Counted from the stretch's first letter, positions 13,508 through 18,770 are shown. The stretch: 64,000 nucleotides of DNA from Schmidtea polychroa (GCA_044892525.1 CM097885.1:15626001-15690000); one strand, 5' to 3'. The notes: generated by a model not told the origin, from the letters alone. Made by a program: numbers and translations.

Positions 13508-14385
13508 TGTTTCGACCAGTCAGAGGGGGATTTATTCGGTTTCTTTTTCTATCGCGTCTGTGTGCGCGGTCTGGTTAGACCGAATATTGTTGGTGTGCGC
13601 ACACAGACGCGAGCAATGGATTGTTGTTTGGAAGTAGGTTTTGATGTAATTTTTTATTGAATTGATTTTTGATGTATTTTAATTAGAAATTCGAGATTTG
13701 AATGGATTGTTTTGTGGTTTAAAAAAGGTAAAATTCTGGAAGGGAGGAAACCAGTTTTGTTTTTTGAAATAAGTTTTGGAATCGAAATGTTTGAAGAAGA
13801 AGATGTTGATTACAAATTTATTAAAGCTTATGATGTTCCAAACCAAGATCTTATTTCTTATTTCGATGAAACCCGTGAATTCATTGAAAATGGCAGAAAA
13901 TTTGGTGGAGTATTGGTTCACTGTCTTGCTGGAAGATCAAGAAGTGGAATTATTTTGACGGCTTATTTAATGAAACATTTTAAAGTTGGTCCAAACGATG
14001 CGATTGAGACAATTAAGGAAAAGTCATTTATATGTCCAAATGATGGATTCATGAAACAATTAAAGATATATTTCAACATGAATTGCAGTGATGAAATCAA
14101 CAAATGCGCAAATACAGTTTCTCAAGCTCAATTTAAGTTATCAGCATCTTCAAAAGATTTAGTTCAATTCAAATGTAGAAAGTGTCGATTTTTATTATTC
14201 GACAATTCAAGTGTTGTTGAGCACAGTAAAATGAAAGCTTCGAAAGCAATAAATGAAAGCACAATTTGCAATGAGGAAATACTTATCGAAGCTCTTCCTT
14301 GGATTGATAGCAGCAATGCAGACGGGGAAATGAAAATGACAGTGTTAAAGAATAAAATTTTAATGATTTATTTGGATCTTATTCA
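13508..14385 (+). repeat. 5' LTR (878 bp) containing DUSP12-like ORF
   Basis: TGTTTC...TATTCA. Near-identical to 17903-18770 apart from a 16-bp deletion and at least two substitutions; AATAAA at 14351. Confidence 0.92.
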
Positions 14386-17300
14386 TGGTAGCAGAGCGTG
14401 GTTCCGGCTAGCCAGCCGGAACAAGGTAATAGATGATTATATAATGTATTTTTTGTATTTACGTGATTATTTTGTGAATTATTTTATGAATTATAATATG
14501 TGTTATATTTTTATTGTTGAAACATTTCCCCTAGGGCCTGCCCTCCCTAACCCCATTAGAGGTGGATTGGCGCGGGTATTTGTCAAAATAATAACAGGGA
14601 AGACAATTACTCTCGAAGTTGAATCTAGTGACACGATAGAAAATGTTAATGCGAAAATACAAGATAAAGAGGGTAGTCCACCTGACCAGCAACGATTAAT
14701 TTGCGCGGGAAAACCATTAGAAGATGAGCGAACATTATCTGATTATAATATTCAAAAGGAGTCTACTTTGCGTTTAGTTTTGCGATTGAGGGGTGGAATG
14801 CAAATATTCGTGAAGACACTGACAGGAAAAACAATAACTTTGGAAGTAGAATCAAGTGATACTATTGAGAATGTAAAGGCTAAAATTCAAGAAAAAGAAG
14901 GGATACCCCCAGGGCGACAAAGACTTAATTTTGCCGGGAAAGTATTAAAAGATGGCCTAACGTTGTTAGATTATAACGTTAGGAAAGAAGCCACGGTACA
15001 TCTGGTTTTGGGGCTGGCAGGGGGAAGTCCAGTATCAGATGCGGAGTTCGAGGCGGGGTACAAGAGACGAACCGGGTGGAAGATTTCGTTAGGGCGTCTA
15101 CGTAACCGGGCCTTAGGAGATGGATCGGACCCTGGGGAAGATCAAAGGAGAATAGAGGCTTACGAAGATATGTATGAGGAAGTCATAAACGAATTGGAGG
15201 ACCTGAGGAATAATGCTCGGGAGTTAGGGCGGGAGAAAGAAGAAAAGGAAATTGAGGCAGATCTGAAACGGTTAGAAGCGGATTTCAGCAGAATCGGCGA
15301 TCTGGTCCTCACGCAGAAGGAAGAGAGTTTTAGAGTAGAGTCGCGGAAGGGCACAGAAAAATCATTTAGGAGCGAAGAGCCCAATGAGAAACAGAAGTGC
15401 ATAATGGGTTTGAAACCCTTGCAGCTGCCGATCTTTAATGGAAAGGTAATAGAATATCCTGGATGGAGGGCAATTGTGAGAGCCTGCATCGAGGACACGG
15501 ATGAGCCGAGTGAAAGAAAGTACTTGTACCTGAGACAGTACTTGGAAGGGAAGCCGCTGCAATTAATTGCCTATATTGGATATGGCTCGCAGGCTTTCGA
15601 GGCGGCGATAAAATTACTTGATGAAAGGTATGGGGGACCAGAAAGATCCTATTCCATGATGCTGGATGCGGTGCAGAGGTTCTTCCCAGTGAGGCTCAAC
15701 GTCTTGGAGGACCTAGAGCGGTTTGAAGAGCTGCTAGGAAACCTCATCCTGAATTTCAAGGATCAGAAGAGGGAAGGCGAGTTAAACAACGGGATGTTGT
15801 ATCACCAACTGCTGAAGAAGCTGCCAGAGACCATGCTGATTCAGTGGTCACGCCATTGTGATTCGGGGAGAGAGGGAAATGTGCAAACGCTAGCCGAGTG
15901 GATCAAAACGGAAGCTAATAGGCATCGGCAAGCAATGAGCATTCTGTTTGGAGAAGGGCGGGCAAAAGGTAGAACTGTCGCCCCAACAACTAACTTCGGA
16001 AATGCGAATAGGGGCACGAAGTTAACGGATAGTAGGCGCAAGATAGAGGTTAGCAGTGCTCGAAAAAAGGAACCAATTTGTGTGAAATGTGGTTCAGAAC
16101 ATTATTTAAATCAATGCTCAGAGTTCCTAAAGCTGACTGTTAAGGAACGAAATGAGTTTGTGACCAAGAAGCGGCTTTGTTACAATTGTCTTACAACAGC
16201 TCACATGGTTAGAGAATGCGAAAAACCGAGCTTTTGTAAGGACAGAGATTGTACTCGAAAGCATCACAATTTGCTCCATGGCTCAGAGAACAAAGTTGAT
16301 GGAGATCAAGAGCCGAGCAATGAGAACACATCAATGATGACGGTTCAAGATACACAGAGGAAGAAGATGTATGTTCCTTTACGAACGATTACAGCAAAGT
16401 TGATTAATAAAGGAAAGGCGGTCAAGATCAACGCATTGCTAGACGACGCTAGCAATGTTAGCTATATTAGCGATTGGGCGGCGCAAGAACTGGGGTTGGG
16501 AGGACAGTGGCAAAGCACTCCAGTTGGCGTGATTGGTGGACAATCACAAATGTTGGAAACGAAGCCCGTGACGCTATTATTGGCAAGCAACAATAACAAT
16601 TTAAAGGTAAATTTGAACGTCCTGGTGGTAAAAAAGGTCACTGGAGACCTGGGAATGTGTAACTGGAGGAAGTTATCGGCGAAATGGAAGCATCTGCGAT
16701 ATATAAACTTCCCGGTTATGAATACAAGGACGCAGATTGATGTATTGATTGGTTCTGATTACCCATATCTACATCGATCTATTTGCGAAGTAACAGGAGC
16801 AAAGCATGAACCAATTGCAAGGTTGACGCCCCTCGGATGGACATGTCTTGGTAGGATTGCAAGAAATCAAGCTCCAAGATGTTCGCATTTGGCTCAGAGT
16901 TATTTTGCGGTAACGGAAATGTTAAACGACGGAGAAATGATTATTCATGATGTAGATAATTCTGAAGAAATGGATTATATTAAAGAATGGGATAAAAACG
17001 ATGAAACACATGAAAACAAAAAGGCTAGCGAAGATGGAGATAGGGAAAGCAATGAATGTGAGAATTTACAATCTAGCGATATTATAAATCAAGATGGAAT
17101 AGAGCAAAATCGAGTCAATGAGAACGAGAATAATTATTCTGAATTTGTAAAAAGTAATACTGAACTATTAGGCAAAGCTTTTGATAAAGGAGACCAAGTT
17201 ACAGCAGATGAGTTAGAAAATATTGTCAAAAGTCACAATCAAGAAGAAAATTTTGAAAGTAAATATGATGAAACTGAAGTAGATGTGTCAGACAAGAATG

Positions 17301-17860
17301 AAAATTATAATAGTCATGTAGGCACAGAGGTTGTCGACATTAATGTTATCGAAAGACCGAATTCTTTGGTAGAAGATAATTTTCAAAACATGGAAGACGT
17401 AGTTAATGTTCAAACGGATTCTGCTTCTTCAGAAAATCATTTAGAAACTGATCGAATTATGCCAGATTCTGAGAGCAATGACAGTGATCTTAGAGTCGAT
17501 ATTGGTAAAGATCATACATCCGACACAGCTAAAGATTCTGAACAAAATACATTCACTCAACCAACGTCTGCTTTAGATGATATCATTGAAGACTATTCAC
17601 CTGGTTCCCCTTTATTAAATGAGATGCAACAGGGAAAAGTGGGGACTATTGAATTGGTGAAACATGCAGGAAGGATAATGGAGATATTGCAGCGAAACAG
17701 AATGAAAAGTGGCAGGGGCTTGGTCGAGTATGGCGATGGTGGGAGGAGAATCCACCATGATGTATCCAGAAAAGTGCGTGGTGCGGTGGCCTTTACCATA
17801 GCAAGATGGGTGTGTGAGGGGTATTGGAGAGAGGCAAAAGGAAAGGTTCCCCTGAAGTAA
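13787..17860 (+). CDS. Chimeric polyprotein: DUSP12/YVH1-like phosphatase - ubiquitin x2 - BEL Gag - aspartic protease - acidic tail
   Basis: Single stop-free frame from ATG 13787. Contains [20 protein letters not shown] and CRKCR (DUSP12); two 76-aa ubiquitin units (14570-14797, 14798-15025); LPIFNG..YPGW Gag motif; CxxCxxxHxxxxC, CxxCxxxxHxxxxC and CxxxxCxxxHHxLLH knuckles; ALLDDAS and IDVLIGSD protease motifs. Confidence 0.85.
14386..14403 (+). promoter_or_regulatory. Primer-binding site, initiator tRNA-Met type
   Basis: TGGTAGCAGAGCGTGGTT immediately follows the LTR terminal CA and resembles the complement of the 3' end of animal tRNA-iMet (…CTCTGCTACCA). Confidence 0.85.
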
Positions 17861-17888
17861 TTGGGTGGTTGATCCGCTAGAAGGGATC

Positions 17889-17902
17889 AAGGAGGGGGGA
17901 AA
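17889..17902 (+). promoter_or_regulatory. Polypurine tract
   Basis: Unbroken purine run (AAGGAG, G-run, AAA) directly before the TG of the 3' LTR. Confidence 0.85.
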
Positions 17903-18770
17903 TGTTTCGACCAGTCAGAGGGGGATTGCCTCTGACTGGCATTTATTCGGTTTCTTTTTCTATCGCGTCTGTGTGCGCGGTCTGGTTAGACCGAATATTG
18001 TTGGTGTGCGCACACAGACGCGAGCAATGGATTGTTGTTTGGAAGTAGGTTTTGATGTAATTTTTTATTGAATTGATTTTTGATGTATTTTAATTAGAAA
18101 TTCGAGATTTGAATGGATTGTTTTGTGGTTTAAAAAAGGTAAAATTCTGGAAGGGAGGAAACCAGTTTTGTTTATTGAAATAAGTTTTGGAATCGAAATG
18201 TTTGAAGAAGAAGATGTTGATTACAAATTTATTAAAGCTTATGATGTTCCAAACCAAGATCTTATTTCTTATTTCGATGAAACCCGTGAATTCATTGAAA
18301 ATGGCAGAAAATTTGGTGGAGTATTGGTTCACTGTCTTGCTGGAAGATCAAGAAGTGGAACTATTTTGACGGCTTATTTAATGAAACATTTTAAAGTTGG
18401 TCCAAACGATGCGATTGAGACAATTAAGGAAAAGTCATTTATATGTCCAAATGATGGATTCATGAAACAATTAAAGATATATTTCAACATGAATTGCAGT
18501 GATGAAATCAACAAATGCGCAAATACAGTTTCTCAAGCTCAATTTAAGTTATCAGCATCTTCAAAAGATTTAGTTCAATTCAAATGTAGAAAGTGTCGAT
18601 TTTTATTATTCGACAATTCAAGTGTTGTTGAGCACAGTAAAATGAAAGCTTCGAAAGCAATAAATGAAAGCACAATTTGCAATGAGGAAATACTTATCGA
18701 AGCTCTTCCTTGGATTGATAGCAGCAATGCAGACGGGGAAATGAAAATGACAGTGTTAAAGAATAAAATT
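17903..18770 (+). repeat. 3' LTR containing second DUSP12-like ORF copy; last 26 bp missing
   Basis: Repeat of the 5' LTR (ORF 18123-19013, ATG 18198). Identity stops just after AATAAA and runs into (ATT)n. Confidence 0.9.

Follow-up and report, generated by a model that had tools for sequence, protein, structure and literature searches.

Host-gene capture by retroelements is known from the retroviral oncogenes, where the cargo lies between the long terminal repeats (LTRs). Functional sequence within the LTR itself is known from mouse mammary tumor virus (MMTV), whose sag gene is a separate open reading frame (ORF) in U3, and from Cassandra, whose LTR carries a 5S RNA gene. In Ty1 of yeast, the 5' LTR contains the start of the Gag frame, with the primer binding site (PBS) embedded in coding sequence, but the LTR contributes only few codons, and these are the element's own. 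Here, we describe an LTR retrotransposon at positions 13508-18770 of a 64,000-nucleotide stretch of the Schmidtea polychroa genome (GCA_044892525.1 CM097885.1:15626001-15690000), hereafter termed the window, whose LTRs hold a fragment of the host gene DUSP12. As in MMTV and Cassandra, foreign or functional sequence is located in the LTR, and hence at both ends of the element and in solo LTRs; unlike in these two, the inserted sequence comes from a host protein-coding gene and forms one reading frame with Gag. Compared to Ty1, the LTR contributes about 200 codons, most of them host-derived. Since the cargo resides inside the LTR, it is doubled in each copy, survives in solo LTRs, and would start the Gag message.

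Elements that carry host gene fragments have been described from plants. Bs1 of maize is non-autonomous and combines pieces of three host genes in a hybrid reading frame (PMC13317346; PMC2774510), and 425 maize elements with gene fragments have been reported (PMC2774510). Similarly, the window element carries and amplifies fragments of host genes (DUSP12, polyubiquitin, and an acidic protein). It differs from Bs1 as described in the consulted parts of these reports, where the fragments lie inside the element, in that the DUSP12 fragment is located in the LTR, is found in solo LTRs, and is joined to Gag via ubiquitin, and in that the host is an animal. Orchid Ty3/gypsy elements bear an m6A demethylase domain that is functional according to the title of the report (PMC9289625). 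As far as that report was consulted, both cases represent a host-derived domain fixed in a family of LTR retrotransposons, the domain described here being truncated, apparently unconstrained, and situated in the LTR. BEL/Pao elements have been reported from flatworms and cnidarians (PMC3118150). The window element shares with BEL/Pao elements a Gag of the DUF1759 type and 5-bp target duplications, and in a sister element (L050, see below) a protease is followed by RVT_1; the assignment to BEL/Pao is one by Gag type. Unlike BEL/Pao elements, it has no pol, and neither LTR-resident coding sequence nor ubiquitin repeats are mentioned in the consulted parts of PMC3118150. The literature search found no DUSP12 or ubiquitin in an LTR retrotransposon, no ubiquitin-Gag fusion in a retrotransposon, and no LTR-borne host coding fragment at the start of a ubiquitin-Gag frame; Repbase may hold a consensus of this family.

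The window feature is a multi-copy, non-autonomous LTR retrotransposon. Our reading of it, to which we assign a probability of roughly two in three, is that it belongs to a non-autonomous family of the BEL/Pao type in which translation runs from the DUSP piece in the LTR through the PBS into ubiquitin and Gag, and that the DUSP piece is most likely a passenger kept as an open frame. The analysis was based on an assembly of 781 Mb with about 30% G+C and four chromosome-scale contigs (C1-C4), in which the window corresponds to C1:15626001-15690000. The LTR ends were set by base-by-base reading and by comparison with independent genomic copies and solo LTRs. The features of the window copy, with the evidence for each in brackets, are as follows.

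13085..13507, no strand: (ATT)n microsatellite, 5' flank (sequence; repeat family D1)
13508..14385, + strand: 5' LTR, 878 bp, TGTTTCG...TTATTCA (3' end fixed from other copies)
13553..13611, + strand: perfect inverted repeat of 15 nt in the LTR head, arms 13553-13567 and 13597-13611 (sequence)
13628..13798, + strand: hypervariable LTR stretch (LTR positions 121-291), putative site of the U3/R border (copy comparison)
13787..17860, + strand: single ORF of 1357 codons, ATG at 13787 within the 5' LTR (translation, Pfam)
13799..14325, + strand: DUSP12/YVH1-like host segment, LTR bases 292-818 (host-gene alignment, contig breakpoints, Pfam DSPc)
14327..14569, + strand: linker of 81 codons without homology, open across the LTR end and PBS (frame analysis)
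14351..14356, + strand: AATAAA, candidate poly(A) signal, 30 nt before the LTR end, LTR position 844 (sequence)
14386..14403, + strand: PBS, initiator-type tRNA-Met (18/18 nt complementarity)
14570..15025, + strand: two head-to-tail ubiquitin repeats (Pfam PF00240, polyubiquitin alignment)
15434..15856, + strand: Gag core, DUF1759 (PF03564)
16178..16219, + strand: CCHC zinc knuckle, with a second, variant knuckle just upstream (translation)
16412..16633, + strand: aspartic-protease-like part, motif LLDDAS at 16436-16453 (weak Pfam match below the cut-off)
16924..17622, + strand: acidic fragment of a third host gene at the place expected for pol (contig breakpoints, protein match)
17880..17902, + strand: polypurine tract GAAGGGATCAAGGAGGGGGGAAA (sequence)
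17903..18770, + strand: 3' LTR, starting with TG, final 26 bp gone (comparison with other copies)
18771..18950, no strand: (ATT)n microsatellite, 3' flank (sequence)

The first-pass annotation, which had been made from the sequence alone, took an apparently duplicated DUSP gene for a pair of LTRs with TG..CA ends that differ by a few changes only. The pair was borne out by a direct repeat (13520-13819 and 17931-18230, 98% identity, spacing 4411), and the 5' LTR indeed runs from TG to CA. The 3' LTR of the window copy gives way to (ATT)n after 18770; its last 26 bp are lost, and with them the CA end. Complete TG..CA LTRs are present in other copies of the family. Over 852 aligned positions, the LTRs of this pair differ only twice, at 13763 and 13950. 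In addition to the 26-bp loss, however, the 5' LTR lacks 16 nt after LTR position 22, which correspond to one arm of a hairpin and are present in the 3' LTR of the window and in most other copies. Each LTR consists of a variable head of about 190-290 nt, the host DUSP segment of 527 nt, and a tail of 60 nt. The equivalent of the candidate AATAAA signal is found at 18762-18767 in the 3' LTR. As both flanks are (ATT)n and the 3' LTR is truncated, the target duplication of the window copy is unreadable.

The predicted priming sites were both found in place. The PBS, TGGTAGCAGAGCGTGGTT, begins at 14386 with zero spacer after the 5' LTR, and it is complementary over 18/18 nt to ...AACCACGCTCTGCTA + CCA, the 3' end of a tRNA-Met(CAT) of the same genome. 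The polypurine tract directly adjoins the 3' LTR (TG at 17903), and the identical purine tract precedes the 3' LTRs of L009-L012 and L017. The tRNA-Met(CAT) genes were called by ARAGORN in a tandem array on C1. A tRNA pattern search gave 1248 genome matches and none in the control, and four genes were called in a 3-kb sample. The array, at C1:79.32-79.39 Mb (L039-L044), is very long and has a period of 454 bp. A different pattern, a 16-mer, was discarded: its 394 sites were PBS copies only, and no tRNA gene was present in nine loci scanned.

Mobility was assessed by a genome search with LTR positions 2-851 as query, for which 40 of 1182 first-look candidates were scored. At least 44 LTR matches of 84-100% identity were obtained on C1-C4 and one small contig, many of them paired at a distance of 3.8-4.5 kb. 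Target duplications of 5 bp agreed in 12 of the 16 LTRs or elements having both ends, a count that omits L001-L008 (segmental duplicates of the window copy) as well as L013, L015, L017, L025, and L026 (truncated, one-ended, or LTR-sharing). Specifically, the duplications were GACAG (L011), CTAGG (L016, solo), CCTAT (L014), ATATT (L047, solo), ATTAT (L010, L012, L024), AATAA (L020), and ATAAT (L018, L021, L023, L048). Four of the matching duplications stand in unique sequence. The four cases without a match (L009, L019, L022, L046) are all located in (ATT)n, with the register off by one base. Ten solo LTRs (L016, L018-L024, L047, L048) retain the DUSP fragment. Independent insertions with distinct target duplications and survival of the fragment in solo LTRs, both foreseen by the first-pass annotation, were thus recovered.

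These data also bear on the possibility that no mobile element exists and that a DUSP gene was locally duplicated, or misassembled, beside retroelement debris. The window copy does lie inside a large tandem segmental duplication, with near-identical copies at C1:15.58-16.06 Mb and on contig C707. Yet independent copies with their own flanks and 5-bp duplications are found on all four chromosomes, the PBS with its tRNA match and the polypurine tract are in place, and a complete host gene is located elsewhere. Furthermore, contigs from other public runs span the junction of DUSP piece, LTR end, and PBS (the contig of run X7 covers 14190-14407 without difference); since independent contigs bridge the junctions, the repeat is no assembly artefact. 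Run X7 carries the label of another organism and contains a share of 0.61 of the sampled words. We regard this explanation as scarcely credible.

Several observations concern the surroundings of the copies. Positions 1-6000 of the window recur at 58001-64000, and further segmental blocks are seen at about 23100-29300 and 52200-58900, the repeats spaced at about 58 kb being approximately 100% identical and those spaced at about 29 kb 89-98%. The element copies at C1:15.58-16.06 Mb and on C707 are nearly unchanged, and some of the element 'copies' are duplicates of one insertion because of this segmental duplication. At least 9 of the 16 both-ended copies, in addition to the window copy, lie inside (ATT)n/(AAT)n, and such flanks surround most insertions of this family and of the sister family (L009, L012, L018, L019, L022-L024, L046, L048, L052); this may reflect a target preference of the integrase or the mere abundance of such repeats. 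Tandem elements with a common LTR were found at L017 (C3:134999800-135004700), where the shared LTR is preceded by a purine tract and followed by a PBS. At C1:233500644-233509965, three LTRs are spaced at 4448 bp, each reading on for 568 codons. These LTR-sharing tandems point to unequal recombination between elements. Elsewhere in the window, a 19-bp tandem array (at least 37 copies) and a 257-bp direct duplication are situated at 35853-36700 and 44850-45363, respectively; neither is related to the element.

The single ORF of the window element encodes, in this order, the DUSP piece, the linker, two ubiquitins, Gag, the protease-like part, and the acidic fragment. The ubiquitins are matched by PF00240 in two stretches (E 2.1e-53) and form contiguous repeats with 125 of 151 residues identical to canonical polyubiquitin. 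Ub1 lacks a methionine and is therefore translatable only from upstream; the RLRGG|MQIF junction between the repeats is intact, and Ub2 ends in GLAGG. Both stretches thus end in GG, and Ub2 stands directly ahead of the downstream protein. Just before Ub1, positions 14543-14569 read ...PNPIRGG, which resembles the worn C-terminus of another upstream ubiquitin repeat. The Gag core was identified as DUF1759, the BEL/Pao type (PF03564, 34 bits vs. a cut-off of 25.4). In an Atlas search with Ub2-Gag, the closest clusters were DUF1759 proteins without ubiquitin, all with scores below 0.9, a result to be taken as a lead only. The match to Asp_protease_2 is weak and under the cut-off (E 0.0062); the homologous part of L050 gave E 0.00037. 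A 2.2-2.3 kb contig of runs X1 and X2 matches 16924-17622 alone and diverges on both sides. The peptide encoded there aligns with residues 1527-1757 of a protein of 2028 residues at 71% identity, and that protein belongs to no Pfam family. The acidic tail is therefore a fragment of a third host gene.

The Pfam search of the 1357-residue ORF product gave no RVT or rve match. The absence of pol noted in the first-pass annotation was thereby confirmed, and as reverse transcriptase (RT) and integrase are missing from the ORF, the element is non-autonomous. A protein search with the whole ORF product was dominated by polyubiquitins and is uninformative on DUSP-ubiquitin-Gag proteins elsewhere, and a homologue search with the product of the LTR ORF at the 'longer' setting gave no match. 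The family member L049 (C1:84981000-84988000) contains a 3.8-kb insert with open frames of 194-257 codons; it was considered as a pol-bearing partner and dismissed, the insert being unrelated and not pol. Likewise, a putative intron at 14427-14534 (GTAA...CCTAG) was rejected: the run contigs contain no GT..AG joint there, and the joints from 14428 to 14496 and from 14428 to 14550 have other ends and resemble length differences between copies. Low-depth contigs of runs X1 and X2 over Gag were not counted as evidence of expression.

The relationship between the LTR and Gag was examined in 23 same-strand LTR pairs or arrays, 3.8-13.6 kb apart, as read from the listed matches. The frame of the upstream LTR is open over 402-1395 codons in 21 of the 23, i.e., it passes the end of the LTR, the PBS, and the linker and reaches ubiquitin-Gag, whereas no frame of a downstream LTR exceeds 333 codons. 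The exceptions are C2:178046041 and C3:69467144; the upstream LTR frame of L010, which is outside this set of 23 pairs, is also broken. Within the 81-codon linker, no stop occurs in the frame of the ORF vs. 12 and 8 stops in the other two frames, and only 29 of 20,000 shuffled linkers were free of stops. The first-pass annotation had described the DUSP sequence as a captured gene contained in the LTRs. This view requires amendment: judged by frame continuity, the DUSP piece is the 5' end of the ubiquitin-Gag frame and not a free-standing LTR gene.

An alternative places the DUSP fragment in U3, like sag of MMTV, where it would remain untranslated or else be expressed from a message of its own or from the 3' LTR; its continuity with Gag would then be an accident of the element's youth. 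U3 is the usual place for inserts tolerated by LTRs, and the candidate AATAAA, at 30 nt before the LTR end, would leave only a very short R-U5 on its downstream side. The frame data are difficult to reconcile with this proposal, as the LTR-to-Gag frame is also open in subfamilies that differ by 12-16% in the LTR, a stop-free linker is expected at p ~0.0015, Ub1 has no Met of its own, and the host fragments examined in both families are all sense-oriented and in frame. A further argument comes from the divergence between copies.

The LTR head is far more diverged than the DUSP piece or Gag. Within the 70 nt of LTR positions 121-190, the 12 independent copies compared had 1-20 mismatches each, with at least 6 in 11 of them, while the DUSP part of many of these 12 copies had 0-2 mismatches in 527 nt. 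When L010 was compared to the window copy, identity was 88% for LTR positions 1-190, 97.0% for 191-291, and 99.5-100% for 292-1060, followed by 96-97% in ubiquitin-Gag. Such a mosaic is the pattern expected if R, U5, PBS, and leader were inherited as one block and U3 came from the other RNA end. The break is located near LTR position 190 and not past the DUSP part, as a location of the DUSP piece in U3 would have it. Taken with the frame data, this makes the U3 alternative improbable in our estimate.

The origin of the DUSP piece was traced to a host gene. The window LTR ORF matches Pfam DSPc (PF00782, E 1e-20) over profile positions 38-131 of 133, so the catalytic domain is incomplete. As the first-pass annotation had stated, the catalytic loop is intact (HCLAGRSRS at 13919-13945; HCLAGISRS in the host gene), and half of the zinc-binding domain is present: the fragment reaches the first CxxC and ends at host residue 236 of 282, before the CPKC...CxC part. 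A public 282-residue DUSP12/YVH1-like protein (P0001) shares 79% identity with the product of the LTR frame and 94% with that of the host parent at G000:C2:123292852-123293697, which covers residues 1-282. The parent is complete and located on another chromosome (C2) than the window (C1); neither the head nor the tail of the LTR has any sequence in common with its flanks. Host residues 43-236 are represented in the LTR piece, apart from an in-frame deletion of 17 codons, and 165 of 176 aligned residues are identical. Contigs of runs X1 and X2 depart from the window exactly at 13799 and 14325 and continue into host-gene sequence.

With respect to the proposed capture of a host mRNA from an intron-containing DUSP12, the host origin was upheld, whereas the expected introns do not exist: the parent is a single open frame of 288 codons. 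Because the parent itself is intronless, the intronless state of the LTR copy is no sign of capture through mRNA.

A search of the genome with the DUSP protein gave 151 matches, 150 of which were listed, and 138 of 219 candidates were scored. Among the matches listed, the 3' end of the LTR copies falls almost always at host residue 235-237, whereas the start is at residue 3, 13, 20, 30, 40, 61, or 70; the subfamilies spanning residues 13-236, 20-236, and 30-236 are defined by match coordinates. A common 3' breakpoint with a varying 5' extent points to one capture followed by trimming. The copies closest to the host gene (91%) comprise residues 3-236 and retain the 17 codons, and thus the window subfamily is a trimmed derivative. 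The solo LTR L047 (ATATT duplication) contains the whole DSPc domain (profile positions 1-131 of 133), and in L022 and L024 the DUSP piece begins at host residue 62. Further changes testify to phosphatase decay: an in-frame deletion of 8 codons removes the catalytic HC in L011 and L014, L023 has an out-of-frame stretch after which the frame is restored, the DUSP piece of L025 is frameshifted, and L018 and L046 contain one stop each. About 132 of the 150 listed DUSP matches are without internal stop. What the copies retain thus appears to be an open frame and not an enzyme.

Selection was estimated by Nei-Gojobori counts per segment for the window copy vs. L009, L010, L011, and L012. For the Gag-protease part, dN/dS was 0.11-0.18 (dS 0.06-0.13), which means that purifying selection acts on Gag. 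Higher values were obtained for the ubiquitins (0.30-0.76) and the acidic tail (0.26-1.06). Between elements, the DUSP piece showed 0-2 synonymous vs. 2-13 non-synonymous changes, with dN/dS not below 1; relative to the host gene, dN/dS was 0.5-1.4 (about 3 synonymous and 9-15 non-synonymous changes, dS ~0.034). In view of the small counts and the common reference copy, our claim from this comparison among LTR copies is limited to the statement that the DUSP piece shows no sign of amino-acid constraint.

These results are pertinent to a further explanation, namely that selection maintains the DUSP fragment as an accessory domain, i.e., a phosphatase or decoy released by ubiquitin cleavage that aids replication or blunts a host response, like accessory proteins of viruses. 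Such a role would fit the open frame in nearly all copies (about 132 of the 150 listed), the HCxxGxSRS loop preserved in most of them, and the L047-type LTRs that keep the whole DSPc domain. Furthermore, divergence within the LTR is lowest in the DUSP part (97-99.6% identity), and the sister family also contains a phosphatase-type fragment (myotubularin) and fragments related to proteolysis. On the other hand, the DUSP piece gave dN/dS values near or above 1 vs. 0.11-0.18 for Gag of the same elements, the commonest subfamilies have lost the N-terminal third of the catalytic domain, and the fragment contains no more than half of the zinc-binding domain. In L011 and L014 the catalytic cysteine is absent, yet the 5' copy still reads into Gag, and L023 passes through a stretch out of frame and back. 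Selection for an accessory function is hence doubtful, if worth keeping in mind, and the passenger reading is preferred.

Sequences related to the window family revealed other cargo at the same place. L050 (G000:C2:72180500-72189900) was reached via a Gag relative of 72% identity, and its PBS is identical to that of the window family. It contains an 820-codon frame, starting about 490 nt upstream of the PBS, with part of ClpP (PF00574, E 4.7e-19), a single ubiquitin, and DUF1759; a weak protease match (Asp_protease_2) and then RVT_1 (E 2.9e-11) follow downstream, and L050 is truncated. The ClpP-bearing stretch is present in about 17 genome copies. Two of these copies, L051 and L052, are solo LTRs and share the TGTTTCGACCAGTCAGAGG head with the window family. 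L051 (duplication ATAGC) encodes a myotubularin-related segment (47 bits, cut-off 25) and ClpP in one 186-codon frame. L052, located in (ATT)n, encodes a proteasome-alpha segment (PF10584, PF00227) together with the myotubularin-related and ClpP segments in one 313-codon frame. All host fragments analysed, of either family, lie in sense orientation and in frame. The occurrence of a second family with other cargo at the same place shows that carrying in-frame host fragments ahead of the PBS is characteristic of the lineage and no isolated accident. Candidate host exons for ClpP at C1:97.44-97.48 Mb are only 51-65% identical, so the ClpP capture looks much older or stems from another source.

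According to the preferred reading, transcription would be initiated within the LTR ahead of 13787, possibly around LTR position 190, which would place the DUSP piece within R-U5. A piece of host RNA may have been spliced into R-U5 by two template switches during the synthesis of minus-strand strong-stop DNA, and an R-U5 insert would be copied into both LTRs within one round of reverse transcription. Translation would begin in the LTR with the DUSP piece, cross the LTR end and the PBS, and continue through the two ubiquitins, Gag, and the protease-like part into the third host fragment. Host deubiquitinases would then cut after the GG of each ubiquitin and release Gag from the upstream part. 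If Gag is freed in this way, the site ahead of ubiquitin tolerates any insert that keeps the frame. RT and integrase would be supplied by a pol-bearing relative.

Ubiquitin acts in this manner in other settings. In pestiviruses with ubiquitin insertions and in ubiquitin-ribosomal protein fusions, a host protease cuts after GG and frees the downstream protein. Pestiviruses are RNA viruses and the ribosomal fusions are host genes, whereas the present case concerns a retrotransposon with cleavage predicted from sequence.

Several points weigh against this reading. The dN/dS values of the DUSP piece derive from few changes, and all four comparisons include the window copy. Its synonymous distance is 0-0.02 between subfamilies and 0.034 to the host vs. 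0.06-0.13 for Gag, and so low a value needs recombination, homogenisation, or constraint at the nucleotide level; possible causes are recombination, along a long R, between RNAs packaged together, a sweep by one R-U5 variant in the recent past, or a constraint on the RNA. The placement of the DUSP piece in R-U5 is deduced from frame continuity and the mosaic pattern, and cleavage at ubiquitin from the repeats themselves, the second of which ends in GLAGG rather than RLRGG. The intact catalytic loop in most copies and the L047 solo type with a whole DSPc domain leave a function of the domain conceivable in some subfamilies. Furthermore, no full autonomous partner was detected among the 81 scored of 1184 Gag candidates (longest frame 1423 codons), and L050 carries only part of an RT.

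On a more speculative level, the lineage could possess a ubiquitin-insulated cargo slot, in the portion of its LTR that is transcribed, that repeatedly takes up host fragments, the cargo being expressed as an N-terminal fusion and clipped from Gag, and some of it acting as decoy or dominant-negative versions of host phosphatase and proteolysis components to the benefit of the element. We consider this extended proposal improbable as it stands. If it were true, the slot would be the retrotransposon counterpart of viral accessory genes, and the element an exon-shuffling vector that seeds promoter-equipped fragments via solo LTRs.

For the annotation of this genome, the consequence is that hundreds of DUSP-, ClpP-, and proteasome-like open frames are parts of LTRs and not genes. 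The ubiquitin repeats provide a simple and testable reason for the tolerance of inserts at this site. Should that reason hold, the family would offer a system in which the splicing of foreign RNA during reverse transcription, exon shuffling in animals, and the question whether cargo ever turns out useful to the element or the host may be studied.

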